Notes: a model not told the origin generated them from the sequence alone. A stretch of DNA of 64,000 bases from Escherichia coli (GCF_003018115.1 NZ_CP027457.1), one strand, 5' to 3'. Shown: positions 26,634 through 43,274, numbered from the stretch's first letter. A program made the numbers and translations.

Positions 26634-26689
26634 AAAGTGGCCCGATGGTGATTCCATCAGGCCAGACTGATGACAAAGTGCGCTTAGTT

Positions 26690-26800: not shown

Positions 26801-26843
26801 TTGTCATAAATCTCAGCCCGATGATAAATCCATCGGGCTATTT

Positions 26844-27810: not shown

Positions 27811-30402
27811 ATGCATCAATCTGGTTCTGTTTCTCTTTGTCGTTCCGCAATATCTGTTCTGGTGGCTACAGCGTTATATTCACCCATAGCATTGGCATCA
27901 ACAGTTGAGTATGGTGAGACAGTTGATGGTGTTGTCCTGGAAAAAGATATCCAGCTGGTTTATGGGACCGCCAATAATACGAAAATCAATCCTGGCGGAG
28001 AACAGCATATTAAAGAATTTGGTATAAGTAGTAATACTGAAATTAACGGCGGGTATCAGTACATTGAAATGAATGGCACCGCAGAATACTCCGTATTAAA
28101 TGATGGTTATCAAATTGTTCAAATGGGTGGCGCGGCAAACCAGACTACCCTCAATAATGGTGTGCTACAGGTTTATGGCGCAGCGAATGATCCCACGATT
28201 AAAGGCGGGCGCTTAATTGTTGAAAAAGATGGGATTGCCGTCTTTGCCGCTATCGAAAAGGGAGGATTACTGGAGGTTAAAGACGGGGGATTAGCATTTG
28301 CGGTAGATCAGAAAGCAGGCGGTGCTATTAAAGCAAGCACGCGGGTCATGGAGGTATTCGGAACAAACCGTCTCGGTCAGTTCGAAATCAAGAATGGTAT
28401 TGCTAACAATATGCTGTTGGAAAACGGCGGAAGTTTGCGAGTTGAAGAAAATGACTTCGCTTATAATACTACTGTAGATAGTGGCGGCTTACTGGAGGTT
28501 ATGGATGGCGGGACTGCAACTGGCGTTGATAAAAAAGCAGGCGGAAAATTAATTGTCTCAACGAATGCGCTGGAAGTGAGTGGTACAAACAGTAAAGGCC
28601 AATTTAGTATAAAAGATGGTGTGTCAAAAAATTATGAACTGGATGATGGTTCTGGGCTTATTGTTATGGAGGACACGCAGGCCATTGACACTATCCTCGA
28701 TGAGCATGCCACTATGCAATCGCTGGGAAAGGATACTGGTACGAGAGTGCAGGCAAATGCGGTATATGATCTCGGTCGATCAGATCAGAATGGAAGTATA
28801 ACGTATTCCTCTAAAGCCATCTCTGAAAATATGGTTATCAACAATGGCCGCGCTAATGTCTGGGCTGGCACAATGGTTAACGTTTCAGTCAGAGGGAATG
28901 ATGGCATTCTTGAGGTCATGAAGCCGCAAATAAATTATGCACCCGCTATGTTGGTGGGTAAGGTAGTGGTTTCTGAGGGCGCTTCTTTTAGAACGCATGG
29001 TGCCGTGGATACCAGCAAAGCGGATGTTTCGCTCGAAAATAGCGCATGGACCATCATTGCCGATATCACTACGACGAACCAAAACACCCGCCTTAACTTA
29101 GCCAACCTTGCGATGTCTGGCGCAAATGTGATTATGATGGATGAGCCAGTGACTCGTTCATCTGTGACGGCAAGTGCGGAAAATTTCACTACGTTGACCA
29201 CCAATACCCTGTCGGGAAACGGCAATTTTTATATGCGTACCGATATGGCGAATCATCAGAGCGATCAGCTCAACGTCACCGGTCAGGCAACAGGTGATTT
29301 CAAAATATTCGTGACGGACACCGGTGCCAGCCCGGCAGCAGGAGATAGCCTTACACTGGTAACAACGGGCGGCGGTGATGCTGCATTTACGTTGGGCAAT
29401 GCCGGAGGCGTTGTTGATATCGGTACGTATGAATATACCTTGCTGGATAATGGCAACCATAGCTGGAGTTTGGCAGAGAATCGCGCGCAAATTACCCCTT
29501 CAACCACTGATGTGCTGAATATGGCGGCCGCACAACCGCTGGTATTTGATGCAGAACTGGACACCGTGCGTGAGCGTCTTGGTAGCGTAAAAGGCGTTAG
29601 TTACGATACGGCGATGTGGAGTTCGGCAATTAACACCCGCAACAACGTGACCACTGATGCGGGAGCTGGTTTTGAGCAAACATTGACGGGCCTGACGCTC
29701 GGTATCGATAGCCGTTTCTCCCGTGAAGAAAGCAGTACAATTCGCGGCTTGTTCTTTGGTTACTCTCATTCTGATATTGGTTTTGATCGCGGCGGAAAAG
29801 GTAATATCGATAGCTATACCCTGGGGGCTTATGCCGGTTGGGAGCATCAGAACGGTGCCTATGTTGATGGAGTGCTGAAAGTTGACCGTTTTGCCAACAC
29901 CATCCATGGCAAGATGAGTAATGGGGCAACAGCGTTTGGCGATTACAGTAGTAACGGCGCAGGTGCTCATGTCGAGAGCGGGTTCCGTTGGGTTGACGGA
30001 TTGTGGAGTGTTAGACCCTATCTCGCCTTTACCGGCTTTACCACAGATGGTCAGGACTACACGTTATCAAACGGCATGCGCGCGGATGTGGGAAATACCC
30101 GGATATTACGCGCTGAAGCGGGAACGGCGGTAAGCTATCACATGGACCTGCAAAACGGTACGACGCTGGAACCCTGGCTGAAAGCCGCCGTGCGTCAGGA
30201 ATACGCCGATTCTAACCAGGTGAAAGTTAATGACGATGGCAAATTTAATAATGATGTGGCTGGAACCCGTGGCGTTTATCAGGCTGGGATAAGGTCATCG
30301 TTTACCCCGACGTTAAGCGGTCATTTGTCAGTCAGCTATGGCAATGGCGCAGGGGTAGAATCGCCGTGGAATACCCAGGCTGGTGTGGTCTGGACGTTCT
30401 GA
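27811..30402 (+). CDS. yejO: Autotransporter adhesin-like protein YejO (intact, 863 aa)
   Basis: Signal peptide, repetitive G/N/T-rich passenger, and a C-terminal beta-barrel ending ..AGVVWTF. No IS interruption seen. Confidence 0.85.
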   Translation: MHQSGSVSLCRSAISVLVATALYSPIALASTVEYGETVDGVVLEKDIQLVYGTANNTKINPGGEQHIKEFGISSNTEINGGYQYIEMNGTAEYSVLNDGYQIVQMGGAANQTTLNNGVLQVYGAANDPTIKGGRLIVEKDGIAVFAAIEKGGLLEVKDGGLAFAVDQKAGGAIKASTRVMEVFGTNRLGQFEIKNGIANNMLLENGGSLRVEENDFAYNTTVDSGGLLEVMDGGTATGVDKKAGGKLIVSTNALEVSGTNSKGQFSIKDGVSKNYELDDGSGLIVMEDTQAIDTILDEHATMQSLGKDTGTRVQANAVYDLGRSDQNGSITYSSKAISENMVINNGRANVWAGTMVNVSVRGNDGILEVMKPQINYAPAMLVGKVVVSEGASFRTHGAVDTSKADVSLENSAWTIIADITTTNQNTRLNLANLAMSGANVIMMDEPVTRSSVTASAENFTTLTTNTLSGNGNFYMRTDMANHQSDQLNVTGQATGDFKIFVTDTGASPAAGDSLTLVTTGGGDAAFTLGNAGGVVDIGTYEYTLLDNGNHSWSLAENRAQITPSTTDVLNMAAAQPLVFDAELDTVRERLGSVKGVSYDTAMWSSAINTRNNVTTDAGAGFEQTLTGLTLGIDSRFSREESSTIRGLFFGYSHSDIGFDRGGKGNIDSYTLGAYAGWEHQNGAYVDGVLKVDRFANTIHGKMSNGATAFGDYSSNGAGAHVESGFRWVDGLWSVRPYLAFTGFTTDGQDYTLSNGMRADVGNTRILRAEAGTAVSYHMDLQNGTTLEPWLKAAVRQEYADSNQVKVNDDGKFNNDVAGTRGVYQAGIRSSFTPTLSGHLSVSYGNGAGVESPWNTQAGVVWTF

Positions 30403-30463
30403 TAACAGACAATAAACAGGCCGTGATGTGTCGCGGTCTGTTTATCGAATTAAATGCAGATAT

Positions 30464-30495
30464 AAAAAAACCAACCTTTACGGTTGGTTTTTTTT
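30464..30495. terminator. Bidirectional hairpin terminator (yejO end; probably the original proL terminator displaced by the island)
   Basis: AAAAAAA-CCAACC-tttac-GGTTGG-TTTTTTTT. On the minus strand it directly follows the partial tRNA 3'-end repeat. Confidence 0.7.
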
Positions 30496-30517
30496 GGGAT
30501 TTTTGGTCGCACGAGAG
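30496..30517. repeat. Island-distal att repeat (partial copy of tRNA-Pro 3' end)
   Basis: GGGATTTTTGGTCGCACGAGAG versus GGCGATTTGGTCGGCACGAGAG at 41337-41358. Confidence 0.75.
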
Positions 30518-30578
30518 TAGTTTAATTGAACGTGTAACTTAATGATTTAAAAGAATGAGTCTGATTCAACTTTTAAGC

Positions 30579-30602
30579 CGTATAACCAAACGTATAGCTA
30601 AA
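30579..30602. promoter_or_regulatory. Tandem 12-mers CGTATAACCAAA CGTATAGCTAAA (candidate integrase arm-type sites, distal arm)
   Basis: Same motif and orientation as CGTATAACTAAA CGTATAACTAAA at 41189-41212 next to int. Confidence 0.55.
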
Positions 30603-30772
30603 TTTATTTGCTGAAAAAATGTACAATTTAGAGTCAGATTTTCCCAGATGTTTAATTTATAAAACGAAGCTGGCGGCTGTTCTCTGATATGTGGATCCCC
30701 ATATCTGGAACCCTACCGGAATTTTTTTCCGGTTACCCTTTAATCAGGCTGGTGGGCTTTACCTGTTCGGTA

Positions 30773-30795
30773 GGTATGATCATTATGATCATACC
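30773..30795. repeat. Perfect 23-bp palindrome GGTATGATCAT-T-ATGATCATACC
   Basis: 11-bp arms read directly from the sequence. The nearby hairpin ACCGGAA-ttttt-TTCCGGT lies at 30715-30733. Confidence 0.9.
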
Positions 30796-30848
30796 TTTCG
30801 CCCCAATGGGAGGTAAAAGCGCCAACTGGACGGTTAAACCGTCTTTTT

Positions 30849-30883
30849 GTCACATCGTGTCACTGGTTGTCACTCTCCGTCAC
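30849..30883. repeat. Four GTCAC repeats with exact 10-bp phasing
   Basis: GTCACatcgt GTCACtggtt GTCACtctcc GTCAC, starting at 30849, 30859, 30869 and 30879. Preceded by hairpin GACGGTT-a-AACCGTC plus TTTTT. Confidence 0.9.
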
Positions 30884-30910
30884 GATGTCCGCTCGCCTGG
30901 CTGTAAATCA

Positions 30911-31139
30911 AACTACGAAATTTTCGTAGTTGTGAGTAAGCCCCAAAATATGGGGATTACTCTTACTACCCAAACTACGGGTAGTTTCCGTAGTTTCATA
31001 GTCGAGTTGCAGATCTGCAACTCCCCCACCAGCCAGCGCAATTTTGCGCTTTGCTTTAAGTTCAGCGAGTTACAGCGCCGACTTCCTCAAATTGAGGTTG
31101 CCGGAAATATCAACCAGTTACGAGGCTCAAAATTGAGCC
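30911..31139. repeat. Train of seven short palindromes/hairpins in non-coding DNA
   Basis: 30911-31 AACTACGAAAtTTTCGTAGTT; 30941-55 CCCCAaaataTGGGG; 30972-87 AAACTACggGTAGTTT (plus CGTAGTTT at 30989-96); 31004-23 GAGTTGCAGATCTGCAACTC (perfect 20-mer); 31035-50 AGCGCAAttTTGCGCT; 31085-97 CCTCAAaTTGAGG; 31124-39 GGCTCAAaaTTGAGCC. Confidence 0.9.
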
Positions 31140-31156
31140 GCCTTTAAATCAACACG

Positions 31157-31438
31157 TTACCGCCGTAACCGCTCCGGCTTCTTCCAGTTGTACGTAATTT
31201 TCTCTTTCTCCCTGTACATCTCTACACGGCGATTGTAGGCCAGCATTTCAAGAACGCGGATCCGTATGTCGCGCATATCAACGCCATTAAGTTCTATACC
31301 ATCACGGCGCATCACCTCCACCACTACACGCACATAATTATCTGCGGTCATGCTGTCCGGCTGCGTGGCCTGTTCGTCAACCTGCTGGCTGATTCCGGCG
31401 ACGCGGCGGATTAATCCCAGTATTTCGGCTTCTGTCAT
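31157..31438 (-). CDS. Hypothetical island protein (93 aa)
   Basis: ORF with ATG preceded by a G-rich SD-like stretch. Follows repeat copy 1. No recognisable motif. Confidence 0.5.
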   Translation of the reverse strand: MTEAEILGLIRRVAGISQQVDEQATQPDSMTADNYVRVVVEVMRRDGIELNGVDMRDIRIRVLEMLAYNRRVEMYREKEKITYNWKKPERLRR

Positions 31439-31475
31439 TGTGCCCCCATCGCGCTGGTGAAGAAAACAAGCTCAG

Positions 31476-31690
31476 ATTTTTTGTAAAGAATCTGTCACGC
31501 TAAAAGATGTCGAACAAAAAACAACCTTCTTCATCATCTTTTTTACATCAAAGCAATTAAAAACAATCACTTACGAACATGATGATGATGACGATAAAAT
31601 CAAAAAAATGCGTTTTTTTCCGCGCCGCCCGCCCCGTGTTCAGGCCCACCCCACCAGGAGGACCCGCAAAAAAGGCGGCTGGTGCCGCCT
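31476..31690 (-). repeat. Copy 1 of ~215-bp island repeat (terminator + G-rich cos-like core + A/T tracts)
   Basis: Aligns block by block with 34015-34228. Shared blocks: TTTTTGTAAA, GAACAAAAAACAACC, ATAAAATCAAAAAAATGCG, TTTTTCCGCGCC, CCGCCCCGTG, CAGGCCC..CCCCACCAGGAG and the terminator hairpin. Confidence 0.85.
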
Positions 31691-31695
31691 TGTTG

Positions 31696-33585
31696 TCATA
31701 GTGAATCGGTACCGCCTGATTTGACCATACCGCGATAATCCAGAGCTGCCACACCTGCATCAATACGGACTTTCCAGGCCACGCCGTCAACGATAAAACC
31801 TTCCTGCTGTTCAAGGTAAGGCTCGTCATTGCCATCAAGATAAGCCACCTCGATTGTGTCCGTTCCCTGTGCGGAAAGCATGTACCATTGTTTTTCGCTG
31901 ATATCATCAAGGCGGGGATCGACGATGATATCAAGTAGCTTGTGGTACGGGTTAAAGATCCCGCTGTTTTTATCAGCCCCGAAAGGTGCGGTTGAGTTAA
32001 TCATCTGCAACGCGCGATCTTCCAGTGCTGCCGGAACTAAAAGGAATTTAGGCGCAATATTCAGCACTTCGCCATTTTTGTCCTTCTGTGTGCGCATCAG
32101 GTGACGTGCTGCACTAAGTCCCGGTGTTGTCAGTCCTGCTTCAATCAGGTTGCTGTGTTTTTTGTCAAACAGCGTTATTCCGTCAGAAAGTTTTACGTTG
32201 CCTGTAAGCACCAGATTAACCAGATTTCCCACCGTTCTTGATGCTGCACGGCCCATAGCCATTGGCACCGTTGATAACTGATCAAGGTCATCATTGATTA
32301 TCGCCTGGCGGGTAATGCTGAAAATATTCCCGTAAGTAGCCAGCGCGATGGGTTCACCGCGATCGCTGGTGGTGATGTATTTATATTCTGCCCCTTCCGG
32401 CACTTTGTTTAACGTTGAGAAGCCATTCATACCAACGCGGCGGGCTTCCCGGAAGTTTGAAAGGGAACCTTTTTTCGTCCACTGGCGGAATGTTTCGCCG
32501 CTGTGCTCCCAGCCTGCAAGCACTGATTTTTCAGCGCCACCAGCAAGGATATCGGTAAAATCGCTGCTGCTGTGGGTGAATGCCGCGTTTACTATCTGCG
32601 AGCGTGTGCCGTAGCTGCCCGTGCTTATACCACGATGGGTTAATGATGCCTGTGCCATATCGAAAAGGCTCATCATGGCGTAAGGATTACCGCGTTCGGC
32701 CCGTTCGTGACCAAGACGCGCATTAAGCCCCTGACGCATGGCATCGCCGGTTATATTGCCGTTATCCGTGTACGCGTAGTAAAGATTTGCGGGGGTGGTT
32801 TTGTTTGTTGGCGTTGATTCTTTACCCATAGCGAGTAAAAGGCGTTCGCGTGCATTCTCAACGCTACATTCTGAATCCGCAAGACAACTTATAGCCAGGT
32901 CGTTATATCTTCCGTTGAAGGTGCCAAACAATTCACGGATTCCGTTAAGTCGTTCCTGTTCGCCACTGCCAGTTTTCTGGCTGATCATGCTTTTAATTTT
33001 TTCCGGCATATTTGAAAAATCTCCGATTCGTTTTGATTCAATTCGGGCCATTGCTGTAATCGCGGGTATAACCTCATCTGCGAAGCCGTTAGCCTTACAC
33101 TCATTGCCATCCATCCAGGTTTCCGCCTCCATCATTGAGGTGATCTCCTGTTTGCTCCTGCCCGTTCTTCCGGCATAGGTTTCTGCCATCGTGTCGCCCA
33201 GCTTGTCCATCAGATCAGCAAAGCGGCGAACGTCGCCCGACACTCCGGCAGTAACACCACGGGGGGCATGTATCATCATCATCGCGTTTTCAGGCATAAC
33301 GATGTGATCTCCACACATGGCAATAAACGACGCCATAGAAGCCGCCATGCCTTCAATGTGTACGATTTTTTTTGCCGGATGATTTTTCAGGGCGTTATAG
33401 ATAGCCAGCCCTTCAAAGATGTCGCCACCAGGTGAATGAATGCTCAGATGGATTTCAGACGCATTACCACACGCGTTGATCTCGTCAGTAAGTGCCGATG
33501 CTTTTACACCGTACCCGCCGATCTCGTCATAAATGCGCACATAGACAACATCTGCCATAGCCTTAATGGAAAACCATGTTTTCAT
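31696..33585 (-). CDS. ClpP-family prohead protease fused to phage major capsid protein (629 aa)
   Basis: N-terminus: IHSPGGDIFEGLAIYNAL..GMAASMASFIAMCGD..MMMIHAPRG (ClpP/S14-like Ser and His motifs). The C-terminal ~330 aa resembles HK97-fold/Mu gpT-like capsid proteins (..ALATYGNIFSITRQAIINDDL..WYMLSAQGTDTIEVAYLDG..). Assignment is from memory of the family, not from a search. Confidence 0.75.
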   Translation of the reverse strand: MKTWFSIKAMADVVYVRIYDEIGGYGVKASALTDEINACGNASEIHLSIHSPGGDIFEGLAIYNALKNHPAKKIVHIEGMAASMASFIAMCGDHIVMPENAMMMIHAPRGVTAGVSGDVRRFADLMDKLGDTMAETYAGRTGRSKQEITSMMEAETWMDGNECKANGFADEVIPAITAMARIESKRIGDFSNMPEKIKSMISQKTGSGEQERLNGIRELFGTFNGRYNDLAISCLADSECSVENARERLLLAMGKESTPTNKTTPANLYYAYTDNGNITGDAMRQGLNARLGHERAERGNPYAMMSLFDMAQASLTHRGISTGSYGTRSQIVNAAFTHSSSDFTDILAGGAEKSVLAGWEHSGETFRQWTKKGSLSNFREARRVGMNGFSTLNKVPEGAEYKYITTSDRGEPIALATYGNIFSITRQAIINDDLDQLSTVPMAMGRAASRTVGNLVNLVLTGNVKLSDGITLFDKKHSNLIEAGLTTPGLSAARHLMRTQKDKNGEVLNIAPKFLLVPAALEDRALQMINSTAPFGADKNSGIFNPYHKLLDIIVDPRLDDISEKQWYMLSAQGTDTIEVAYLDGNDEPYLEQQEGFIVDGVAWKVRIDAGVAALDYRGMVKSGGTDSL

Positions 33586-33776
33586 AGCCAGGCTCCTAAC
33601 GTTGCCTGGTACCAGTATTCAACCGCGCTGCGTGTGATTTGTCCTTTCGTGGGCACTGGCATACCCGGGTGATTATCTTTGATGAACTGCTGATAGCGTT
33701 CGATCTTCTCCATAGTTCCGGCGTCTATGTGCACAGTGGCACTTTTATCCGGCTTTCTGGTGTTGTTCTCTGGCAT
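33582..33776 (-). CDS. Small protein (64 aa from second Met), possibly ribbon-helix-helix-like, translationally coupled to the capsid fusion
   Basis: GGAGG lies 7 nt before the ATG at 33776 (MPENNTRK..). The stop overlaps the capsid-fusion start (ATGA). The pattern TVHIDAGTMEKIERY..TKGQITRSAVEYWY suggests a beta-alpha-alpha fold. Confidence 0.55.
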   Translation of the reverse strand: MPENNTRKPDKSATVHIDAGTMEKIERYQQFIKDNHPGMPVPTKGQITRSAVEYWYQATLGAWL

Positions 33777-33970
33777 AAATCCGCCTCCGTTTTGATTAAC
33801 GGGCATCATTATTGATCGATAAAAGTAATAGATAAATCATTTTCTACCTGAAAATCAGATTATGTTTTTTCTGATTATCCTCAGAGAGGCAAAGCCATTG
33901 ACGCATTTTTGCTATTGAAGCAATATTAAGACTCGTCATCCTGGCGATAAAAACTCCTTTGTCGTGTAAA

Positions 33971-34008
33971 AGCGCCTCCGGTAACAGCAATCGGGGGCGC
34001 TTTTTTTT
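33971..34008. terminator. Strong hairpin flanked by A8/T8 in the leader of the capsid operon (bidirectional terminator-like)
   Basis: GCGCCTCCG-11 nt-CGGGGGCGC (9 bp, one G.T) followed by TTTTTTTT on the plus strand. On the minus strand the same stem is followed by TTTTAC. Confidence 0.6.
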
Positions 34009-34014
34009 GCGCCT

Positions 34015-34228
34015 GTTTTTTGTAAATGTTTTCGGGAACGTTCCAGTGATGAACAAAAAACAACCCGATTCGACACTAAAAATTTTTATTCCTCAATATA
34101 TCAATAGCTTATAGTGGTGGTGATGGTGCCATAAAAATCAAAAAATGCGCCTTTTTCCGCGCCCCTCCGCCCCGTGGACAGGCCCCCCCCACCAGGAGTA
34201 CCTACAAAAAAGCCGGATTGCTCCGGCT
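34015..34228 (-). repeat. Copy 2 of ~215-bp island repeat
   Basis: See copy 1. The terminator AGCCGGA-ttgc-TCCGGCT plus a T-run (minus strand) lies immediately after the PerC-like gene. Confidence 0.85.
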
Positions 34229-34234
34229 GTGTGA

Positions 34235-34507
34235 TTAGCTGTCTTGGTAATTACACCATATTTCATCGCTTACACCATCTATACCCATTTCAGCATAAGT
34301 GCGATCTACTGCCTTTCTCAGGTCTCCGAAGTTATCCGGCGGCTCCGGTGGCCTCTGTGCCTTCCTGGAACATTCCAGCCGTCGCATCGTAACCTGATGC
34401 CGTTCCTTGTCTGTCTCCACCAGCTGCATGACTTCACCCCATCGCGCCGCCGCCCTCCGGTAAAATCCTTTCGCCTCGAGTTCCTCCGCTATGCGGTCAT
34501 GTATCAT
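34235..34507 (-). CDS. PerC-family-like transcriptional regulator (90 aa)
   Basis: The N-terminal pattern IAEELEAKGFYRRAAARWGEVM resembles the AE.LE..G..RRAA.RW signature I recall for PerC/Pch proteins. Confidence 0.5.
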   Translation of the reverse strand: MIHDRIAEELEAKGFYRRAAARWGEVMQLVETDKERHQVTMRRLECSRKAQRPPEPPDNFGDLRKAVDRTYAEMGIDGVSDEIWCNYQDS

Positions 34508-34772
34508 CGCCTGACTCTCCGGTTTTTACGTTGATGGTTGTTACCTGTTCCGCTTCGGCAATCTCCCGTTCTGTCAACGTGGCAAAGTTTGCCGCCGCTG
34601 TGGTCATGAATGCGCTTATCAGTTCGGGATGCTCCTTCGCGTATCCTTCCCCCGCGTGGCGGTCTATTACCCTGATTGCCACCTTTAAGGCGTGCTCTGT
34701 CATGTCTAACGCTTTATATTTCGGCTCTGTTCTGTCTCTGCGCATTTTGGTTATCTCCTCACTCATGCTCAC
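34497..34772 (-). CDS. Hypothetical island protein (91 aa, GTG start)
   Basis: ORF overlaps the downstream gene by 11 nt. Part of the tightly packed operon. Confidence 0.5.
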   Translation of the reverse strand: MSMSEEITKMRRDRTEPKYKALDMTEHALKVAIRVIDRHAGEGYAKEHPELISAFMTTAAANFATLTEREIAEAEQVTTINVKTGESGDDT

Positions 34773-34958
34773 TTTTACACCTCACTTTTTAAAGCGTCTC
34801 GCTTCGTCTCACTTGATATTTTTTGATGCTTTATGTGTGTGTTTCATAAGGATTTTTTTACTCCTCACTTTTGAGCATGTATACAGGTGAGAAAGTGAGT
34901 AATCGTGTTAATATTTTGTAAAAACCTCACCATTACTCACTTTTGCTACTCACTTTTT
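34758..34958. repeat. Iteron cluster (CTCACTTTT family) flanking an AT-rich core: candidate island replication origin
   Basis: CTCACT(T) copies at 34758, 34768, 34781, 34808, 34864, 34936 and 34949; CTCACC at 34926; inverted GGTGAG/AAAGTGAG at 34886-34899. The AT-rich stretch is 34815-34862. Lies immediately 3' of the replication ATPase gene. Confidence 0.6.
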
Positions 34959-36366
34959 ACAGTGGTCCTACATCATCACCATCAATGTAAATCACGGCGT
35001 CTTTTTCCAGTTTGGCTAACCATCGCCGCATATTTTTCACGTCATACCCAAGCCGTTTCATGTCATCACGTAACAGCGGGATCGTGCACTTGTCGCCGTT
35101 CTGTGTGCGTGAACGGATGCACCCCCATAGTGCGGTATGGTTTTCCGTCTTGTTGCCTGCCTCCTCGATGCGTTCCAGTTCAACGGGAGGGCGCGGCTTA
35201 TCCACCACCACCAGCGACGTGATTAACTCCCCGTCAGCGTCGGTAAACAGCTCCACCACGCGTAAGTCATATGCGGCTTCTTTGAGTTCCTCCGCGTCCT
35301 TCATTTTGGTGCATGAGATAACCAGCGCTTCGCTTCCTGCGTCCTCCCTGCGTATCCGGTATTCAGCATCCAGTGATGCACGAAATGCACTGGAACCGCG
35401 CGCGCCTTTCGTCTCATCCTTGCCGGAATGGTGAACCACCAGCACCGTGGCCCCTGTGCGTCGTTTCAGTTCGTCACAACCACGGATAAACGCCCCCATA
35501 TCACGGGAATCATTTTCATCATTCCCACCAAAGCAACGCGCCAGCGTATCCAGAATAATCATGCGTACAGGTTTACCCGTTTCCCGCTCCACCTGACGGG
35601 CAGCGATAACCATTTCATCAACATCAAGCGGGACCGCCGGAAAGATGGGACGGTTTACCAGATACAGATTTTTCACCTGCTCACCGTGCACAACCTCCCA
35701 GGCTTTTACACGACGCGGAACGCCGATACCGCCTTCACCAACCACATAGAGAACAGCGCCATGCGCCACCCTGCGGCCTCCCCACTGGCGGCCCGTGGAA
35801 ACGTGACACGCCCACGATCCGGCAAGGAATGATTTATAGGAACCGCTCGCCCCGTATATGCTGCAAAGCGACGATGCCGGAATAATCCCCTTTACCACGT
35901 AATCAAGCTGTGTGTCGTATCCGGTAGATCCAACGCTCATCGGTAGCGTGGTTTTTCGCTGGGGGATTTTTTTCATGACCAGGCTTTCCCCGCGTTCCCA
36001 TGCCTCCCTAAGCCGTGGAAGCTGGTCGCTCCATTCCTCCAGCAATTCGAAATTTTCAGAAAGTAGCCGCGCCTCCTGGACTCCGGCGATCGCCAGTTTC
36101 GTGGCGATGGTTAACAGCTGCGGCTCTTCAATATTTCCGGCGCGTATCACCGTCGCCCTGTATCGCCCATCATCAACAATCTGGAGGTTATCCAGTTTGC
36201 TTAACTGATAACGCCCCAGATAAACGGGAGGGACTGGATCGCCTGCTTTTTTGGCCTGTGCAATGATGTAATGCTCTGCGAATGAGTGAGCATCAATACC
36301 CGCAAAAATAATCGCATCGGTGTATTTATCTTTCGGTAATCGTTTTACGTTCGGTGCCAGTTTCAT
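34957..36366 (-). CDS. Replication ATPase, RepA/AAA_25 (RecA-like helicase) family, 469 aa
   Basis: Walker A GASGSYKS, Walker B RMIILDT and VVHHSGKD motif, typical of RepA-like helicases of plasmids and satellites. N-terminal ~140 aa unassigned. No zinc-finger or Toprim primase motifs seen. Confidence 0.7.
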   Translation of the reverse strand: MKLAPNVKRLPKDKYTDAIIFAGIDAHSFAEHYIIAQAKKAGDPVPPVYLGRYQLSKLDNLQIVDDGRYRATVIRAGNIEEPQLLTIATKLAIAGVQEARLLSENFELLEEWSDQLPRLREAWERGESLVMKKIPQRKTTLPMSVGSTGYDTQLDYVVKGIIPASSLCSIYGASGSYKSFLAGSWACHVSTGRQWGGRRVAHGAVLYVVGEGGIGVPRRVKAWEVVHGEQVKNLYLVNRPIFPAVPLDVDEMVIAARQVERETGKPVRMIILDTLARCFGGNDENDSRDMGAFIRGCDELKRRTGATVLVVHHSGKDETKGARGSSAFRASLDAEYRIRREDAGSEALVISCTKMKDAEELKEAAYDLRVVELFTDADGELITSLVVVDKPRPPVELERIEEAGNKTENHTALWGCIRSRTQNGDKCTIPLLRDDMKRLGYDVKNMRRWLAKLEKDAVIYIDGDDVGPL

Positions 36367-36662
36367 TTTTTACCCCTGAATCCGTTAATCATGGTTTTCA
36401 GCTTCTGGATGTTTGCCCGTGCCCTGGCGTTGCTGGTGGGCACGTTATGCGGCGCGGTCTGTACCAGAGAAAAATCACGCCGGAACTGATAAACAGGCAT
36501 CACGCAATCATATTCGTAACCTTCACGGCGGTAAGTTACGCACCGTCCCGCCACGCCCTTAATCATTACCGTGCCGCCGTACTGGTCGCGGTAAATATCA
36601 CCGCGCGTAAATTTAGGGTGAGTGTTGCCACTGGCAGTTAAGCCAGAATATTTAAGTTTCAT
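36363..36662 (-). CDS. Small protein, DUF4222-like (99 aa)
   Basis: The pattern YRDQYGGTVMIKGVAGRCVTYRREGYEYDCVMP resembles remembered DUF4222 proteins found upstream of satellite replication genes. ATGA overlap with the ATPase gene. Confidence 0.45.
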   Translation of the reverse strand: MKLKYSGLTASGNTHPKFTRGDIYRDQYGGTVMIKGVAGRCVTYRREGYEYDCVMPVYQFRRDFSLVQTAPHNVPTSNARARANIQKLKTMINGFRGKK

Positions 36663-36667
36663 TATTT

Positions 36668-36901
36668 TTATTCTCCGGTGTGCTGTTCGTTATATCTGTC
36701 GTGCAATGTCTCTATTTCCTGCAACTCATTTATTACAGGCTCAAGAAGCGTTATTAATGCCGTGGCAATTCTTGATTTTTGTTTGTCGCGTTCATTGTCG
36801 CCAAGTGTTTCAAGCCATATGCGCAATATTTCCATCATATTTTCACTGTGAGAAAGTGCAAGAAATACGCGATCTGTTGTTTCGTGGTAAATATCACGCA
36901 T
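36668..36901 (-). CDS. Hypothetical small helical protein (77 aa)
   Basis: ORF packed 1 nt after the upstream stop. Confidence 0.5.
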   Translation of the reverse strand: MRDIYHETTDRVFLALSHSENMMEILRIWLETLGDNERDKQKSRIATALITLLEPVINELQEIETLHDRYNEQHTGE

Positions 36902-36902
36902 A

Positions 36903-37124
36903 TTAATTACCGTCCGTTGTTTTTCTTAAAACAGCTTCTGTCACGAAATCGGCATAGTTAGCGGCAATATCAAGAATATTTAGCCCTGTATCTCTGTGCT
37001 CATCAGTGCAAAGAAAGAAAAAAGCCACCCGCATAATTTCAGATATTGACGAAAGCGCATCAGCCGCATCATCAGGAACGCCGGAAAATTCTTGTTTCAG
37101 GGAATAAAAACGATCATCACGCAT
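36903..37124 (-). CDS. Hypothetical small protein (73 aa from MRDDRFY)
   Basis: The ATG at 37124 overlaps the upstream stop (ATGCGTGA) and is preceded by a GGGGGGG SD-like run. Confidence 0.5.
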   Translation of the reverse strand: MRDDRFYSLKQEFSGVPDDAADALSSISEIMRVAFFFLCTDEHRDTGLNILDIAANYADFVTEAVLRKTTDGN

Positions 37125-37356
37125 AACCCCCCCCATTTTCACAATCAGTAATCAGGATGGTTTTAGCCTCATTCAGTGCCATATCAGCACTAAATTGCAT
37201 AACAGCCAGTGAGTGAGGAACGAAAGCCCCGGTATATTCTGTTTCGCTGGTGGCGTGCTTATGTGCCCTGTCCGCGATAACAGAAATATCAATCAGCGCG
37301 TGCATCAGCGTTTTGATGGCTTCGGCGGCTGCGTCCGGTGTGGTTTTATTGTGCAT
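37117..37356 (-). CDS. Hypothetical small protein (79 aa)
   Basis: ORF overlaps the upstream ORF by 11 nt. Confidence 0.5.
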   Translation of the reverse strand: MHNKTTPDAAAEAIKTLMHALIDISVIADRAHKHATSETEYTGAFVPHSLAVMQFSADMALNEAKTILITDCENGGGYA

Positions 37357-37675
37357 AAAGCATCCCCTGAATATTCGTGTTAATCATTCCGGCACGTTTT
37401 GTGATTTCCTGTAATGATTCCCTTGTGGCGACAATTGCTTCATCTGGTAAGTGGTAATTACACACCACGCGACCTTTATCCACATTGACCAGTAGCTGCC
37501 CTGTGAATTTCTCACGAAACTGAATGCGGTTAAGGTCAGTAAGTGACAGATTAATAATGGCGCACCTCCTGACGAATACGGGCGGCAAATACAGCAACAC
37601 AACCGGACGGGCAACGGTTACGCGCTTCGCGTTCCGTCCAGGCGGTGACGTGGATGATTTGAGATTCTCCGGCAC
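37346..37675 (-). CDS. Hypothetical protein, start uncertain (109 aa from GTG 37675; ~71 aa if initiated at ATT 37558 after AGGAGG)
   Basis: Long open frame overlapping the icd-like ORF out of frame. A strong AGGAGG (37570-37565) has no canonical start codon at proper spacing, only ATT. Confidence 0.4.
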   Translation of the reverse strand: MPENLKSSTSPPGRNAKRVTVARPVVLLYLPPVFVRRCAIINLSLTDLNRIQFREKFTGQLLVNVDKGRVVCNYHLPDEAIVATRESLQEITKRAGMINTNIQGMLYAQ

Positions 37676-37748
37676 TCAGGGCCAGAAAACGCCACACAAA
37701 GGCAGTTTGTGTGTGTACAAGGTGTGGTATATGATTTACGGCAACCAT
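37551..37748 (-). CDS. Small protein (65 aa), tentatively Icd-like (host cell division inhibitor family)
   Basis: GAGGAG SD 5 nt before the ATG. First gene of the leftward operon. The pattern FVWRFLALS..IIHVTAWTEREARNR..VFAARIRQEV resembles my recollection of Icd-like proteins of P4-like elements. Unverified. Confidence 0.5.
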   Translation of the reverse strand: MVAVNHIPHLVHTQTAFVWRFLALSAGESQIIHVTAWTEREARNRCPSGCVAVFAARIRQEVRHY

Positions 37749-37812
37749 AACGGCTCCTCGTTTACGTTGTTGGTTAGAAGCCCCGTTACTGCTCCTACAG
37801 TGCGGGGTTTCG
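37742..37812 (+). ncRNA. Candidate small RNA A (cis-antisense to the RBS/start of the icd-like gene)
   Basis: Promoter-like TTGTGT (37707-12) -17 bp- TATGAT (37730-35). Hairpin GCCCCG-17 nt-CGGGG (37780-37807) followed by TTTCGTCGTTTC. A homologous unit lies at 38453-38565. Confidence 0.35.
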
Positions 37813-37837
37813 TCGTTTCAACACCTTGCCTAAATAA

Positions 37838-37891
37838 GGTGTTGAACACCAATTTAAATCGAGGTGTTAAACACGTCAAGTGTTGAACACT
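37838..37891. promoter_or_regulatory. Three palindromic operators (GGTGTTGAACACC family) overlapping divergent promoter-like hexamers
   Basis: 37838-50 GGTGTTgAACACC (perfect); 37863-75 GGTGTTaAACACG; 37879-91 AGTGTTgAACACT (perfect). Minus strand: TTGACG (37879-74) -17- TAAATT (37856-51). Plus strand: TTGAAC (37883-88) -17- CATACT. Confidence 0.6.
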
Positions 37892-37940
37892 TATTTTTTT
37901 TCCTGCATACTGCATTTGTTTTTTATGAGGGGTGCTCAAC

Positions 37941-38120
37941 ATGGCGACAAAAGCAGTAAACGCAAAATCACAAACAGTTGCGGCAAGGGTTCCACATGAA
38001 GTTATGAACAATGTTGAGGCGGTAAAAATGCCCGGCGAAAGTACAGGGCAGTTTGTTACAGCTGCATTAAAGCGGGAAGTTGAATACCGCCAGCGTCGCA
38101 AGGCCAAAGAATCAGAATAA
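37941..38120 (+). CDS. Ribbon-helix-helix DNA-binding protein 1 (59 aa)
   Basis: ATG preceded by GAGGGG. TVAARVPHEVMNNVEAV..STGQFVTAALKREV fits a beta-strand/helix/helix (CopG/Arc/MetJ) layout. Confidence 0.65.
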   Translation: MATKAVNAKSQTVAARVPHEVMNNVEAVKMPGESTGQFVTAALKREVEYRQRRKAKESE

Positions 38121-38177
38121 TCACTATCAGCGCCGTGGTGTGAGGTACTACGGCGCATTGCTTTACAGGGCAGTATC

Positions 38178-38405
38178 ATGACCAACAACACACTATCACC
38201 AATACAAGACACGCAAACGCAAGATGATGAAATCATCCGGCAAAGGCAGTCAGAAGCCTGCGCCAGACTTGAGGAAGAACTAACCAGAACAAAAATACCA
38301 CCACCAGCGCCGCGCTTAGTGCCACCAGAAAAATTTGCCCTTGAAGATTTTGTCGATAAATACCCACGGCGGCTTAAATCCGGCAAAAACCGACCGCCTG
38401 GCTGA
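38178..38405 (+). CDS. Small protein (75 aa), paralog of 38856..39059
   Basis: MTNN.. start. Shares the motif F.L(E/D)(D/E)F(V/L).KY.R with the second copy. Confidence 0.5.
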   Translation: MTNNTLSPIQDTQTQDDEIIRQRQSEACARLEEELTRTKIPPPAPRLVPPEKFALEDFVDKYPRRLKSGKNRPPG

Positions 38406-38487
38406 GTGCACAAAACCGAACTATGAAACGGATTATTCCGTTTCCGGGGCGTTTGTGTGTGTATAAAGAGTAAGCTATGCTCTTTTA

Positions 38488-38565
38488 TAGCCATAATCGT
38501 TACCTCAATTAATGGTTTGGTTAGACGCCCCGTATGTGAGCCACCACTGCGGGGCGTTGTTTTTT
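38488..38565 (+). ncRNA. Candidate small RNA B (homolog of RNA A with a strong intrinsic terminator)
   Basis: TTGTGT (38453-58) -17 bp- TATGCT (38476-81). TTGGTTAGA, then stem ACGCCCCG (38525-32) / CGGGGCGT (38550-57), then TTGTTTTTTG. Confidence 0.4.
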
Positions 38566-38583
38566 GTATAACGGTAAGTACAA

Positions 38584-38624
38584 TGGTAATTACCATGTAA
38601 CTATAGTAATTAAGGGTAATTACC
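38584..38624. promoter_or_regulatory. Palindromic operators GGTAATTACC (x2, plus a degenerate middle copy) at the RHH-2 start
   Basis: TGGTAATTACCA at 38584-95, AGTAATTAAG at 38605-14, GGTAATTACC at 38615-24, abutting the ATG at 38625. Confidence 0.55.
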
Positions 38625-38798
38625 ATGTCAACACCATTGGAAAAGCGATCGCCTCCATACCAAATGCGGCTACCAGAAGAATTCAGAGCACAACTTGAAG
38701 AGGCAGCGAAAGCAGACGGTGACACTTCTTTAGCCACCTGGATCAAGCGAGTACTCCGAAAAGAATTACAGCAACGCGGTATTGAACCCAAAGGATAA
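38625..38798 (+). CDS. Ribbon-helix-helix (Arc-like) DNA-binding protein 2 (57 aa; below the ORF-track cutoff)
   Basis: Manual translation gives MSTPLEKRSPPYQMRLPEEFRAQLEEAAKADGDTSLATWIKRVLRKELQQRGIEPKG. The MRLPEE..L..AA...G.S....I pattern is typical of Arc/MetJ-type repressors. AAGGG SD lies 8 nt upstream. Confidence 0.6.
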   Translation: MSTPLEKRSPPYQMRLPEEFRAQLEEAAKADGDTSLATWIKRVLRKELQQRGIEPKG

Positions 38799-38855
38799 AA
38801 AACATCAGCGCCGTGGCGTGAGGAACTCCGGCGCATTGCTTTACAGGTACACACA

Positions 38856-39059
38856 ATGACCAACAAAGAATCAACCAATACACCATCGCAAAAAACGAAC
38901 AGAGAGCACGAAAATATGGCGTTCGAGCATGAATCAGAAAGATTCGCACCATGCGCTTTTGTCCTTGATGAGTTTCTAAAAAAATATTCACGTTCTGAAC
39001 GGATGAAAATGGCAGCACAATACGGCCCCAACAAGCAAGATAATTGCCCACCAGCCTGA
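38856..39059 (+). CDS. Small protein (67 aa), paralog of 38178..38405
   Basis: MTNK.. start with FVLDEFLKKYSRSERMK motif. Preceded by the conserved 44-nt hairpin block. Confidence 0.5.
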   Translation: MTNKESTNTPSQKTNREHENMAFEHESERFAPCAFVLDEFLKKYSRSERMKMAAQYGPNKQDNCPPA

Positions 39060-39127
39060 TCGCGGTTATCATGCCCGGGCTTATGATTGTTGACACATAC
39101 GGCGCAGCGGGTTAATTGTTCAGAAAG

Positions 39128-39156
39128 GTGGCTCCATTTCGGGGCCGCTTTTTTTA
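39128..39156 (+). terminator. Rho-independent terminator ending the rightward RHH operon
   Basis: GGCTCC-atttc-GGGGCC stem, then GC and TTTTTTT. Confidence 0.6.
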
Positions 39157-39180
39157 TGTTCATCATTTGCCCTATATATG

Positions 39181-39387
39181 TTAAGCGGTCGTTCCGCGCG
39201 CTTCTTGTTCGCGTTCTTTCATCCATGCGATTACGTCTTCCTCATACCATCCGCGACGGCGCAAACCGACACGAAAACCCTGCGGGAATTCTCCGGCGTT
39301 GATCATGCTTTGCAGCGTGCTGTCTGCCTTAATGTGGATAAGTTTTTTTACTTCCTGGCGAAAGATGACTTTTTTGATTGCTTCCAT
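39181..39387 (-). CDS. AlpA-family phage regulatory protein / excisionase-like (68 aa)
   Basis: The pattern ..LIHIKADSTLQSMINAGEFPQGFRVGLRRRGWYEEDVIAWM.. matches the MerR-like wHTH AlpA/Xis family signature (R.v.W...dV..W). Confidence 0.8.
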   Translation of the reverse strand: MEAIKKVIFRQEVKKLIHIKADSTLQSMINAGEFPQGFRVGLRRRGWYEEDVIAWMKEREQEARGTTA

Positions 39388-39406
39388 CGTGATTTACCTC
39401 ATTAAT

Positions 39407-39488
39407 CCGGTGTATTCCGGTGAGAAATACGGTAAATCATCGGATGCAGGGAAAAACAGTACTCACCGTTTTTAAACGGTATACACCG
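39407..39488. promoter_or_regulatory. Nested inverted repeat across the alpA promoter region
   Basis: CCGGTGTAT (39407-15) and CCGGTGAG (39417-24) pair with CTCACCG (39462-68) and ATACACCG (39481-88). Confidence 0.55.
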
Positions 39489-39520
39489 TTTTTTATATTG
39501 ATGATTTGAAAGGGATTTAT

Positions 39521-39546
39521 AAAAAAAGCGGCATTTCTGCCGCTTT
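39521..39546 (-). terminator. Rho-independent terminator after orf83
   Basis: Minus strand: GCGGCA-gaaa-TGCCGC followed by TTTTTTT. Confidence 0.7.
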
Positions 39547-39554
39547 CAGGATTG

Positions 39555-39806
39555 TTACCGCCATTTTTTTGGCCTGCCTCCGGTCTTCATGGATGCCGGA
39601 CGTACAACCTTATCAATACTTACAGCCAGATTTCTGGAAGCCCCACGGGATACCAGGAAATCTACTACCTGTTTTTTTGATGGGGCCGTCGTTCTGTCCT
39701 CCGGATCGTAGGTTGACCAAAATTCATGCTGAACCATCAGGGCCAGTTGCAGCCCGTCGCAATTGCATCTGAAATTTGTTTGCATCTTAACAGTTTCATT
39801 TTTCAA
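39555..39806 (-). CDS. Hypothetical protein (83 aa) downstream of int, basic C-terminus (GGRPKKWR)
   Basis: ORF between int and its terminator. No confident family assignment. Confidence 0.45.
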   Translation of the reverse strand: MKNETVKMQTNFRCNCDGLQLALMVQHEFWSTYDPEDRTTAPSKKQVVDFLVSRGASRNLAVSIDKVVRPASMKTGGRPKKWR

Positions 39807-39883
39807 GGCCTCGTCGTTAAATGTGATGCAATTATACGACGGTTTTAAATGGTTTTCGTAGTTTTTACTGGTTTTCTGTACAG

Positions 39884-41125
39884 CTAAACGGCTCGGATAC
39901 CCCTTTTACCACTGGCGAGGGTTACGCCCGTCGCCGCAGCCTCGACAAATTCGCCCCACCAGCGCATAAGCACGATGCGTTTTTCTATGTAGTTGCTCCG
40001 GTTGTATGCCCGTCTGACTTCGTTGGTGTCGACGTGGGCAAGTGCGGCCTCTATTACGTCCGGCTCAAAGCCTTCTTCGTTCGCTGCTGTGCTGAATATG
40101 GCGCGTAATCCATGAGACACCAGCACGCCAGCGAATCCCATGCGTCGTAATGCTGCGTTAGCGGTCTGGCTGTTCATCGGCTGCTGTGGGTCTTTCAGAC
40201 TCGGGAAAACATAATCGCGGTGGTGGCTGATTGGTTTCATAGCCTCCAGCACTGCCATAGCCTGGTCACAAAGCGGGATAACGTGGTCGCGGCGCATCTT
40301 CATGCGTCCGGCGGGTATGGTCCAGCGTTGCGCTTCCATGTCGATTTCTTCCCAGCGTGCCGACGATGCTTCAACGGGACGGGTTACGGTCAGTAACTGC
40401 CATTCAATCAGTAATCTGGTCTGCCGTTCTGTTGCCGATACTGATAAAGCCTGCATAAGCTCCGGCAGCTGTTCGGGGCGGATTGTTGGCATATGTTTTT
40501 TTACAGGGGAGGGGAACGCCTTACGCACATTCATAGCCGGATTGGCATCAATCATCCCACTATTGGCGGCGTAATCCATTACCTCATTTATACGCTGTAA
40601 AACTCGCTTGAGCGTTTCCAGGTTGCCACGTTCCTTGATGGGGGTAAGCACCTCAACGAACCTGCGAGCGGTCAGGGTGTCTATTGGCGTGTTGCCGATG
40701 AACGGGAATACATATTTTTCCAGCGATCGCCAGATGTCTTTAATCGTATTGGGGGCCAGATTCTGGCTGATTTTCACCTGGTACCATGCTGTTGCCACAT
40801 TTTCGAACGTGTTCCCTTGTCTTCGGGCCTCTGTCTCTCTTTTTTGCCTCTCGTGGTCCTGCGGGTCAGTTCCGGCACGAATTAACGCCCTGTACTCGCT
40901 ACGGCGTTTTCTGGCATCAGCCAGGGAAACATCATCAAGCGATCCAAAACTCAGCAATATTCTTTTTTTGTCCGATGGTCGGTAGTAGGAAAATCTCCAG
41001 AGTTTTGATCCGGACGGTTTGATCAGGAGAAAAAGCCCTCCGCCGTCCTGTAGGGTGTATTCCTTTTCTGCTGGTCTGGCTGCTTTGATCTGTACTGTGG
41101 TTAATGGGGGTGTTTTTCTCGCCAT
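39884..41125 (-). CDS. Tyrosine integrase, P4-type (413 aa)
   Basis: N-terminal DUF4102-like arm-binding region (LTTVQIKAARPAEKEYTLQDGGGLFLLIKPSGSKLWRF). C-terminal catalytic motifs (HGLRAIFST..AHVDTNEVRRAYNRSNY). Adjacent to the tRNA. Confidence 0.92.
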   Translation of the reverse strand: MARKTPPLTTVQIKAARPAEKEYTLQDGGGLFLLIKPSGSKLWRFSYYRPSDKKRILLSFGSLDDVSLADARKRRSEYRALIRAGTDPQDHERQKRETEARRQGNTFENVATAWYQVKISQNLAPNTIKDIWRSLEKYVFPFIGNTPIDTLTARRFVEVLTPIKERGNLETLKRVLQRINEVMDYAANSGMIDANPAMNVRKAFPSPVKKHMPTIRPEQLPELMQALSVSATERQTRLLIEWQLLTVTRPVEASSARWEEIDMEAQRWTIPAGRMKMRRDHVIPLCDQAMAVLEAMKPISHHRDYVFPSLKDPQQPMNSQTANAALRRMGFAGVLVSHGLRAIFSTAANEEGFEPDVIEAALAHVDTNEVRRAYNRSNYIEKRIVLMRWWGEFVEAAATGVTLASGKRGIRAV

Positions 41126-41156
41126 ATGCTTATGATTCCAAACGAAAAAACAGGGT

Positions 41157-41212
41157 TTTAGTTATACGGCTTTAGTTATACGTCAGCCCGTATAACTAAA
41201 CGTATAACTAAA
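41157..41212. promoter_or_regulatory. Four 12-mers (2 direct TTTAGTTATACG + 2 inverted CGTATAACTAAA) upstream of int
   Basis: Copies at 41157-68, 41171-82, 41189-200 and 41201-12. Same motif as 30579-30602 at the other island end. Confidence 0.6.
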
Positions 41213-41215
41213 AAA

Positions 41216-41336
41216 TCCGGCTGATAGCTTATAAATCCGGTGATGTTCGGTGACTAAAAACCATAAAAAAACCCGCCAATCAAGTAATTGGCGGGCTATC
41301 CCTGTCTTATTCGATGATTTCCGGTGGTATCCGGTG
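41216..41336. promoter_or_regulatory. Cluster of TCCGGTG-type motifs between int and the att core
   Basis: TCCGGCTG at 41216, TCCGGTG at 41236, TTCGGTG at 41246, TCCGGTG at 41320 and 41330. The same heptamer occurs twice in the alpA promoter (39406-39424). Confidence 0.5.
41264..41295 (-). terminator. Rho-independent terminator downstream of proL (supplied by island DNA)
   Basis: Minus strand: CCCGCCAAT-loop-ATTGGCGGG followed by TTTTTTT. Confidence 0.7.
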
Positions 41337-41358
41337 GGCGATTTGGTCGGCACGAGAG
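41337..41358. repeat. tRNA-proximal att repeat
   Basis: GGCGATTTGGTCGGCACGAGAG. Pairs with 30496-30517. Confidence 0.75.
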
Positions 41359-41420
41359 GATTTGAACCTCCGACCCCCGACACCCCATGACGGTGCGCTA
41401 CCAGGCTGCGCTACGTGCCG
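41344..41420 (-). tRNA. proL: tRNA-Pro (anticodon GGG)
   Basis: Reverse complement is CGGCACGTAGCGCAGCCTGGTAGCGCACCGTCATGGGGTGTCGGGGGTCGGAGGTTCAAATCCTCTCGTGCCGACCA (77 nt, encoded CCA, T-loop GGTTCAAATCC, U-GGG-G anticodon loop). Confidence 0.93.
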
Positions 41421-43255: not shown

Positions 43256-43274
43256 AACCTGTTATCTGTTTCCC

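Follow-up and report, generated by a model that had tools for sequence, protein, structure and literature searches.

The stretch of Escherichia coli DNA examined here (GCF_003018115.1, NZ_CP027457.1; 64,000 nucleotides in all, hereafter the window) carries a phage-inducible chromosomal island (PICI) of about 10.86 kb at tRNA-Pro(GGG), on the minus strand at 30505..41363, in which a non-coding module of some 215 bp occurs twice. Read on the minus strand, a PerC-family gene (34235..34507; Pfam PerC, 1.2e-43) is followed by the second copy of the module (34015-34228), and this in turn by orf75 (33582..33809; phrog_4934, 5.7e-51, function not assigned), which overlaps by 4 nt the start of a gene for a 629-aa fusion of a ClpP-like prohead protease with an HK97-type major capsid protein (31696..33585; Pfam Phage_capsid_4 1.2e-54 and CLP_protease 3.2e-33, and so named by PGAP). 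The first copy (31476-31690) stands between this capsid-fusion gene and orf93 (31157..31438, minus strand; phrog_1561), the gene that follows it and that is 84% identical to the last gene of the island EcCICFT073. The features of the two copies are best explained if each is a complete lambda-type cohesive-end (cos) packaging site, in which cosQ is followed after 24 bp by cosN, and this by a cosB of about 130 bp, and we put the probability of this explanation at roughly 0.85, a joint figure that covers the cos sites, packaging by a helper phage and a role with two kinds of helper.

That the module is duplicated, as a sequence-only reading of the window had claimed, is borne out by pairwise alignment. 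The two copies fall into a single register (MAFFT), with every block listed in that reading in the same order on the minus strand and 158 of 223 columns identical (71%, global), and their local alignment score of 109 compares with 18.7 ± 2.3, and a maximum of 28, in 300 dinucleotide-preserving shuffles. A 32-nt core (CTCCTGGTGGGGNGGGCCTGNNCACGGGGCGG) occurs exactly twice in the window, where none would be expected by chance, and a profile made from eight cos cores has just two hits across the window, these same copies (nhmmer; E = 5.9e-17 for copy 1 and 2.2e-14 for copy 2). The copies are in direct orientation, separated by 2538 bp, on either side of the capsid-fusion gene, and the coding DNA that flanks them (PerC, orf75, capsid fusion and orf93) is mutually unrelated, again as had been claimed. 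Identity between the copies is uneven, amounting to 83% in the first 60 nt, the cosQ-cosN part, and to 65% in the other 140 nt, the cosB part.

The elements of copy 1 (31476..31673) all lie on the minus strand. Its cosQ reads GGGTCCT (31659..31665), which is the heptamer at lambda bp 48473-48479, and is separated by 24 bp from the predicted nick, compared with 23 bp in lambda; its cosN core, ACG/GGGCGGGCGGCGCGG (31620..31637, with the slash marking the nick), is the same as the cosN of phages 1720a-02 and CP-1639. The cosB (31506..31593) contains an R3-like element, CGTCATCATCATCATG (31578-31593), a site resembling that of integration host factor (IHF), TAAGTGATTGTTT (31561-31573), with one mismatch to WATCAANNNNTTR on the other strand, an inverted R2-like element, GATGATGAAG (31529-31538), and GGTTGTTTTTTGTTC together with an R1-like CGACATC (31506-31526). 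Copy 2 (34015..34211, minus strand) has the same plan, with a variant cosQ, AGGTACT (34197..34203), that agrees with lambda at 5 of 7 positions and also lies 24 bp from the predicted nick, and a variant cosN core, ACG/GGGCGGAGGGGCGCGG (34157..34175), whose centre is unlike that of copy 1. Its cosB (34043..34130) is composed of an R3-like GGCACCATCACCACCAC (34114-34130), a perfect IHF consensus on the other strand, TATCAATAGCTTA (34099-34111), an inverted R2-like AGTGTCGAAT (34068-34077), and GGTTGTTTTTTGTTC with an R1-like CATCACTGG (34043-34065).

Both copies share the cosN left half-site ACG/GGGCGG, which aligns with the lambda 48502/1 junction and with cos1 and cos2 of EcCICFT073, and in both cosBs the R-like repeats run forward, inverted, forward, with the IHF consensus at an equivalent position. 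The order R3-IHF-R2-R1 that we assign to them on sequence grounds corresponds to R3-I1-R2-R1, the arrangement that cosB has been described as having in lambda-like phages (PMC9026076). The run of CATCAT/CACCAC that had been listed as a separate block follows cosN as CGTCATCATCATC in copy 1 and as CACCATCACCACC in copy 2; it has an inverted partner, GATGATG, beyond the IHF site, is conserved in phage cos regions and is most likely the R3 element of cosB. The likeness to lambda cos thus extends over the cosQ heptamer, the spacing from cosQ to the nick, the left half of cosN, the R3-IHF-inverted R2-R1 order and, in the phages that carry matching sequences, the place before the small terminase gene (PMC9026076). 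The copies differ from lambda cos in the right half and centre of cosN, which is here 1-2 bp shorter, in the sequence of the R elements (CATCATC or CATCACC type, as against CGTTTCC in lambda), in that the matching phages have a DUF1441 protein at the terS position where lambda has Nu1, and in that the island sites have no terS behind them, whereas lambda cos precedes terS. A check for dyad symmetry in cosN gave no discrimination even for lambda and was not used.

The hairpin with a T-run that precedes each copy had been counted as part of the repeat, and here the earlier description holds in part. Both hairpins fold as good intrinsic terminators, directly 3' of the capsid-gene stop codon (GGCGGCACCAGCCGCC plus T-run, adjoining copy-1 cosQ, 31667..31689, minus strand; RNA fold -15.1 kcal/mol, z = -2.1) and of the perC stop codon (AGCCGGAGCAATCCGGCT plus T-run, adjoining copy-2 cosQ, 34205..34228, minus strand; RNA fold). 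The two hairpins are, however, not homologous to each other, and the homology with phages begins only at the T-run and cosQ. In EcCICFT073, where perC has no cos site behind it, the 29 nt that include the perC hairpin recur after this gene with 100% identity; because this hairpin accompanies perC even there, the hairpins are, by their sequence relationships, parts of the upstream genes (perC and the capsid gene) and not of the repeated unit. At cos1 of EcCICFT073 a hairpin and T-run also directly adjoin cosQ.

A near-perfect palindrome, AATGATAA(C/T)CATTATCA, was observed just upstream of cosQ in lambda (48445-48465) and in several lambdoid phage loci (L002 at ~3480-3500, L010, L011 and L003). 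It resembles a Fur-box consensus. At this place the island has the terminator hairpins instead.

The relationship to phage cos regions, which the sequence-only reading had suggested should be sought by BLASTN, is close. Without its hairpin, copy 1 is 86-87% identical over ~195 bp to the sequence between Rz and terS in VT1-Sakai and in several Stx2a phages, and it matches mEp043, mEp213, mEp460 and Fels-1 more weakly; copy 2 matches at 90.5% over 167 bp the cos region of phages 1720a-02 and CP-1639; both copies thus correspond to the Rz-terS region of lambdoid phages. In VT1-Sakai, 1720a-02 and CP-1639 the homologous sequence lies between Rz and a gene for a 158-aa protein that directly precedes a lambda-A-like terL, and in 41 phage loci from IMG/VR the terS gene lies no more than 650 nt downstream of cos. 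Database records say little of the termini themselves. Those of mEp043, mEp213 and mEp460 end just before terS and not at cosN, and so tell nothing about termini; mEp460_4F5 is the one record to begin near cosN, 4 nt ahead of the predicted nick. None of the IMG/VR contigs, which are mostly provirus predictions and so uninformative on termini, ended at a cos site.

The two copies resemble two different groups of phages in cosB. Copy 1 has the cosB of the VT1-Sakai/Stx2a phages (type I), being 82% identical in this part to VT1-Sakai and 57% to 1720a-02, and copy 2 has that of 1720a-02 and CP-1639 (type II), with 75% identity to 1720a-02 and 62% to VT1-Sakai in a global alignment of the cosB part. 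In both groups the gene after cos encodes a DUF1441 protein, and between the groups these proteins are 52% identical over residues 1-66 and 96% over residues 67-158; the N-terminal domain has MDGELKNMKLNINQ in type I (VT1-Sakai/Sp15-like) and MDRELKNLHLNISQ in type II (1720a-02/CP-1639-like). The two phage groups accordingly have cosN, the C-terminal domain of DUF1441 and TerL in common and differ in cosB and the N-terminal domain, which, after the example of lambda Nu1, we take to be the probable DNA-binding domain.

We surveyed 65 IMG/VR loci retrieved by exact 30- to 33-mers from the cosN of both copies, typing their cos sites and downstream genes. In all 41 phage loci the cosB type agreed with the type of the DUF1441 N-terminal domain (14 type I, 27 type II, none discordant), while across both types the C-terminal domain was 93-100% and TerL 99-100% identical. 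Among related PICIs, sites before orf93 were of type I in 16 of 16 cases and sites before orf75 and the capsid gene of type II in 21 of 21, with both orf75 and orf93 present at 14 loci; as retrieval was by exact match and many of the loci are close relatives, none of these counts represents a number of independent events. The exact cosN variant of copy 2 was found in PICI loci only (13 of 13). The possibility that the AGGTACT cosQ of copy 2 is a decayed, termination-defective site was rejected, as loci from Rahnella, Morganella, Moellerella and Pasteurella have the same heptamer at their cos sites; judged by this recurrence it is a natural cosQ allele and not the result of decay.

The pattern is that expected of alleles, and it suggests that the two cosB types behave as packaging-specificity alleles. 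A further PICI, that of clone D i14, joins a type-I cos site to one of lambda/Nu1 type. The two sites most likely exist so that a helper of either specificity could package the island. In its specific form, which we advance as a tentative proposal, the arrangement would be a dual-address device, in which a PICI without TerS or Rpp carries one cosB for each of the two cosB/TerS-N-domain alleles found, with terminases otherwise identical, among Stx-type lambdoid prophages of E. coli, and may be packaged by either type of helper; only those molecules, of unit length or multimeric, that are cut at the same site at both ends would be able to recircularize by annealing. This last restriction follows from the centres of cosN, GGGCGGGCGGCG in copy 1 and GGGCGGAGGGGCG in copy 2, which differ, so that the two ends of a molecule would be complementary only if both were cut at one and the same copy.

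Several points weigh against the explanation as a whole, the cos sites and their use with two kinds of helper, besides the non-independence of the survey loci already given. A mixed molecule, cut at copy 1 and at copy 2, would carry non-complementary ends, and the cosQ and cosN of copy 2 are unlike those of all of the E. coli phages retrieved. It is solely the position of its gene upstream of terL, and the overlap with terL, that marks DUF1441 as a putative small terminase, and the cleavage and packaging predicted for the two copies are read from sequence. The predicted recognition helices of the two DUF1441 alleles are nearly the same (HRQTVAARM and HRQTVAARV), the differences lying mostly in the wing and beyond, and the wings of lambda and phage 21 are reported to be interchangeable (PMC9026076); the two alleles may for this reason not be strictly exclusive specificities. 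Finally, cos2 of EcCICFT073 is dispensable (PMC6092414), which shows that, depending on the helper, an additional cos can be neutral or carry a cost.

EcCICFT073, the model PICI of Gram-negative bacteria, is the nearest system for comparison. It has two cos sites, each of which mobilizes a plasmid, with lambda and phi80 as helpers; deletion of cos1 lowers transfer, deletion of cos2 raises it, and the double deletion abolishes it (Fillol-Salom et al. 2018, ISME J, PMC6092414). Its cos1 has a non-phage cosB that is bound by a complex of RppA with the phage TerS, and why there should be two cos sites was left by the authors as an open question (Fillol-Salom et al. 2019, Mol Cell, PMC6739421). When the two sites were located in the CFT073 sequence, cos1 proved to be upstream of rppA and cos2 to be inverted, between rppA and the orf93 homologue. 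The present island shares with EcCICFT073 the island family, the two lambda-type cos sites at the late/accessory end, a cos directly after a hairpin and T-run, and the absence of terS; as neither island encodes terS, both would depend on the terminase of a helper. The differences are equally clear. The sites of EcCICFT073 are inverted and flank rppA, whereas the present ones are direct and flank the capsid gene; the cosN of EcCICFT073 is lambda's own (GGGCGGCGACCT) and its cosB is unlike any phage cosB, whereas the present island has no Rpp and both of its cosBs are near-copies of phage cosBs, of two types.

Mimicry of the helper's cos is also known from HE-PICI 11capE, which shares with its helper prophage 50icd a 258-bp region, 90% identical, at the position of lambda cos (PMC10111431). 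That element sits in the helper prophage and the present island at tRNA-Pro, and the paper describes a single shared cos region, with two cosB types not mentioned (PMC10111431). Close relatives of the present island (capsid fusion 98-99% identical) were seen in IMG/VR to adjoin a prophage terL fragment (L091, L094, L095, L101, L105, L153 and L155); these relatives appear to be embedded in a helper prophage, consistent with the A:Terminase_1 integration class (PMC10111431), and in L095 the visible adjacent terS is of type I. In Gram-positive hosts, SaPIbov5 and SaPIbov4 are satellites without terS that carry a helper cos sequence, SaPIbov4 with two putative cos sites (cited in PMC6092414); these are unrelated in sequence and have HNH-dependent cos phages as helpers.

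An alternative is that the duplication as such serves no function, one cos being the neutral or slightly costly by-product of module exchange between PICIs and helpers and only one site being used. We regard this as possible, though on the doubtful side. The results with EcCICFT073 speak for it, since cos2 is not needed there and its deletion raises transfer by lambda and phi80 (PMC6092414, PMC6739421), and so does the wider distribution of the modules. The protease/capsid fusion gene is widespread in Gammaproteobacteria, and PICI-like relatives in Kluyvera, Yersinia, Buttiauxella, Moellerella and Rahnella have a single cos directly after the fusion gene, in the position of copy 1; at other loci with the fusion gene the cos stands ~4.5 kb before it, a position like that in an intact phage head module. 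Other E. coli PICIs have one, two or three cos sites, mosaic in content and position. Of two such islands with other packaging modules (L089, 6032-6747, and L090, 6022-9225), one has a lone cos followed by its own DUF1441 (TerS-like) gene, and one has three cos-like sites of two families: a type-I cos ahead of a capsid module of another kind, a cos of lambda type with a Nu1-family gene after it, and a partial cos in inverted orientation. It thus seems that E. coli islands have acquired multi-type sets of cos sites on more than one occasion. The cosQ and cosN at the position of copy 2 also vary among the relatives, as would be expected from frequent conversion or relaxed constraint. Against a mere by-product stand the full cosQ-cosN-IHF-R architecture kept by both copies, which are 87-90% identical to extant phage cos regions, the constancy with which a type-II site stands before and a type-I site after the capsid gene (21 of 21 and 16 of 16, though the relatives are close), and the recurrence of the copy-2 cosQ variant as a natural allele.

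The sequence-only reading had offered two explanations for the module, a duplicated packaging site or a terminator with an activator-dependent promoter, and it is the former that the cosQ, cosN and cosB elements and the 86-90.5% identity to phage cos regions uphold. A late promoter for orf75-capsid and for orf93, dependent on PerC or on an activator from the helper, is improbable. In its favour are the real terminator before each copy, behind which the following genes can be transcribed only from a promoter or by read-through, the PerC-family regulator gene just upstream and a -35-like TTTACA that is kept at the 3' end of both copies. Yet a scan of the minus strand over 31440-31700 and 33810-34240, a range that takes in the 200 nt ahead of orf75, showed no sigma-70-like promoter (at least 8 of 12 positions) and no TGT-N12-ACA, the activator site of P2/P4 Ogr/Delta-type late promoters; the blocks that are conserved correspond to cosQ, cosN and cosB of lambda; and phage cos regions before terS have the TTTACA as well. 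Moreover, the orf93 homologue of EcCICFT073 is preceded by an inverted cos, and perC there is followed by the hairpin and no module, and the module precedes unrelated genes, which in phages are terS and in PICIs orf93, orf75 or a capsid module of another kind. Nothing points to an additional promoter function, which is thus unsupported. A structured RNA or leader peptide, with the CATCAT/CACCAC run read as His, Ser or Pro codons under attenuation-type control, is very improbable and the peptide or mini-ORF (open reading frame) was dropped as a candidate, since, although both copies allow a 10-codon mini-ORF to be read from TTG to a TAA that is aligned between them, copy 1 lacks a start codon in the His frame, neither copy has an Rfam match at E <= 1 (in a scan of 26000-44000), and the run occupies the phage-conserved position of the R3-like cosB repeat with its inverted partner across the IHF site.

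If the two copies are helper-matched cos sites, their use can be outlined by analogy with lambda and EcCICFT073. A helper lambdoid phage would induce the island, which would replicate as concatemers; the helper's small terminase subunit would then bind cosB, with the DNA bent by IHF, and the large subunit, positioned by the small one, would nick cosN. The DNA would be translocated towards orf93 from copy 1 and towards the capsid gene from copy 2, and a second cut, aided by cosQ, would follow at the downstream cos site. The spacings from cos to cos are 2.5 and 8.3 kb on the 10.86-kb unit, and filling a full-size lambdoid head would consequently need several units. For EcCICFT073, the capsid gene is reported to have no detectable phenotype.

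The host element itself is, on the sequence evidence of the tRNA, the flanking repeat, Pfam and tblastn, an EcCICFT073-family PICI. It is bounded on one side by tRNA-Pro(GGG) (41344-41420) and on the other by an imperfect, partial repeat of the 3' end of this tRNA, TGGTCG(G)CACGAGAG (~30505-30520). From the tRNA inwards, all on the minus strand, it has int, for a tyrosine integrase (39884-41125); an alpA-like helix-turn-helix gene (39181-39387; weak Pfam match, PHROG excisionase/regulator); a 496-aa ORF (37736-39226) between the AlpA-like and Icd-like genes, which has no Pfam or PHROG match, is not in EcCICFT073 and could be accessory or anti-phage cargo; the Icd-like gene with several small ORFs, between the 496-aa ORF and DUF4222; DUF4222 (36363-36662); a RepA-type helicase gene (34957-36366); and orf91, between repA and perC. 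With EcCICFT073 proteins as queries, tblastn gave 91% for DUF4222, 88% for a 77-aa protein, 83% for PerC and 84% for a 93-aa protein, and gene order also matches; an element with 97% identity, from a different E. coli genome, has its genes annotated under the same names (RefSeq/PGAP).

No terS, terL, portal or tail gene was found in the island by ORF list, Pfam and PHROG, the protease/capsid fusion being its only virion gene, and searches of the island with PDB, tblastn, Pfam and PHROGs found no Rpp or TerS homologue. RppA gave no tblastn match in the window, and orf93, orf75 and a 152-aa ORF had no match to RppC in PDB, where the 144-aa RppA of CFT073, taken as the positive control, matches RppC at 5e-31. 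The signature of a cos-rpp module (an rpp of 135-154 aa, with a winged helix-turn-helix, after a non-phage cosB) is absent, both cosBs being phage-like.

Other features were observed in and beside the island. Direct and inverted repeats that resemble iterons (units of CTCACTTTT; families D2, D5 and I10) lie at 34746-34962, between repA and orf91; replication origins of PICIs have been reported just 3' of the replication gene (PMC6092414). On the plus strand at 33898-34014, a sigma-70-like promoter, TTGACG-18-AATATT (33898-33927), is followed after ~70 nt by a strong hairpin and T8 terminator (fold z = -4.1), with a weak, sub-threshold Rfam match to ctRNA_p42d (E = 0.2); this region, just downstream of copy 2, could encode an antisense RNA of ~75 nt opposite the orf75/capsid leader. 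The 152-aa ORF lies on the plus strand at the extreme left end of the island (30689-31147), has no Pfam, PHROG or PDB match and is without annotation in the 97%-identical RefSeq element, and is perhaps not a real gene. Next to the island's left end is a gene for an AIDA/pertactin-type autotransporter of 863 aa (27811-30494, plus strand) with a strong terminator, over which there is a sub-threshold, probably spurious, OrzO-P-like Rfam match (E = 0.74).

An island with two cos sites is of a kind already known, as documented for EcCICFT073, and so is cos mimicry in a PICI; what is new here, and it is a modest angle, is the presence of two helper-matched cosB types in a PICI without Rpp. The general picture of satellite packaging is unchanged. 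Cos-carrying PICIs move virulence and accessory genes among enterobacteria by way of lambdoid phages, Shiga-toxin phages included, and the present island indicates that some members of the EcCICFT073 family would use plain mimicry of the helper cosB and not redirection by Rpp. The co-variation of cosB with the N-terminal domain of DUF1441 offers a clean natural example with which packaging specificity could be studied in a poorly annotated family and, as to why there should be two sites, the answer suggested for this island lineage is that there may be one for each packaging specificity of the helper.

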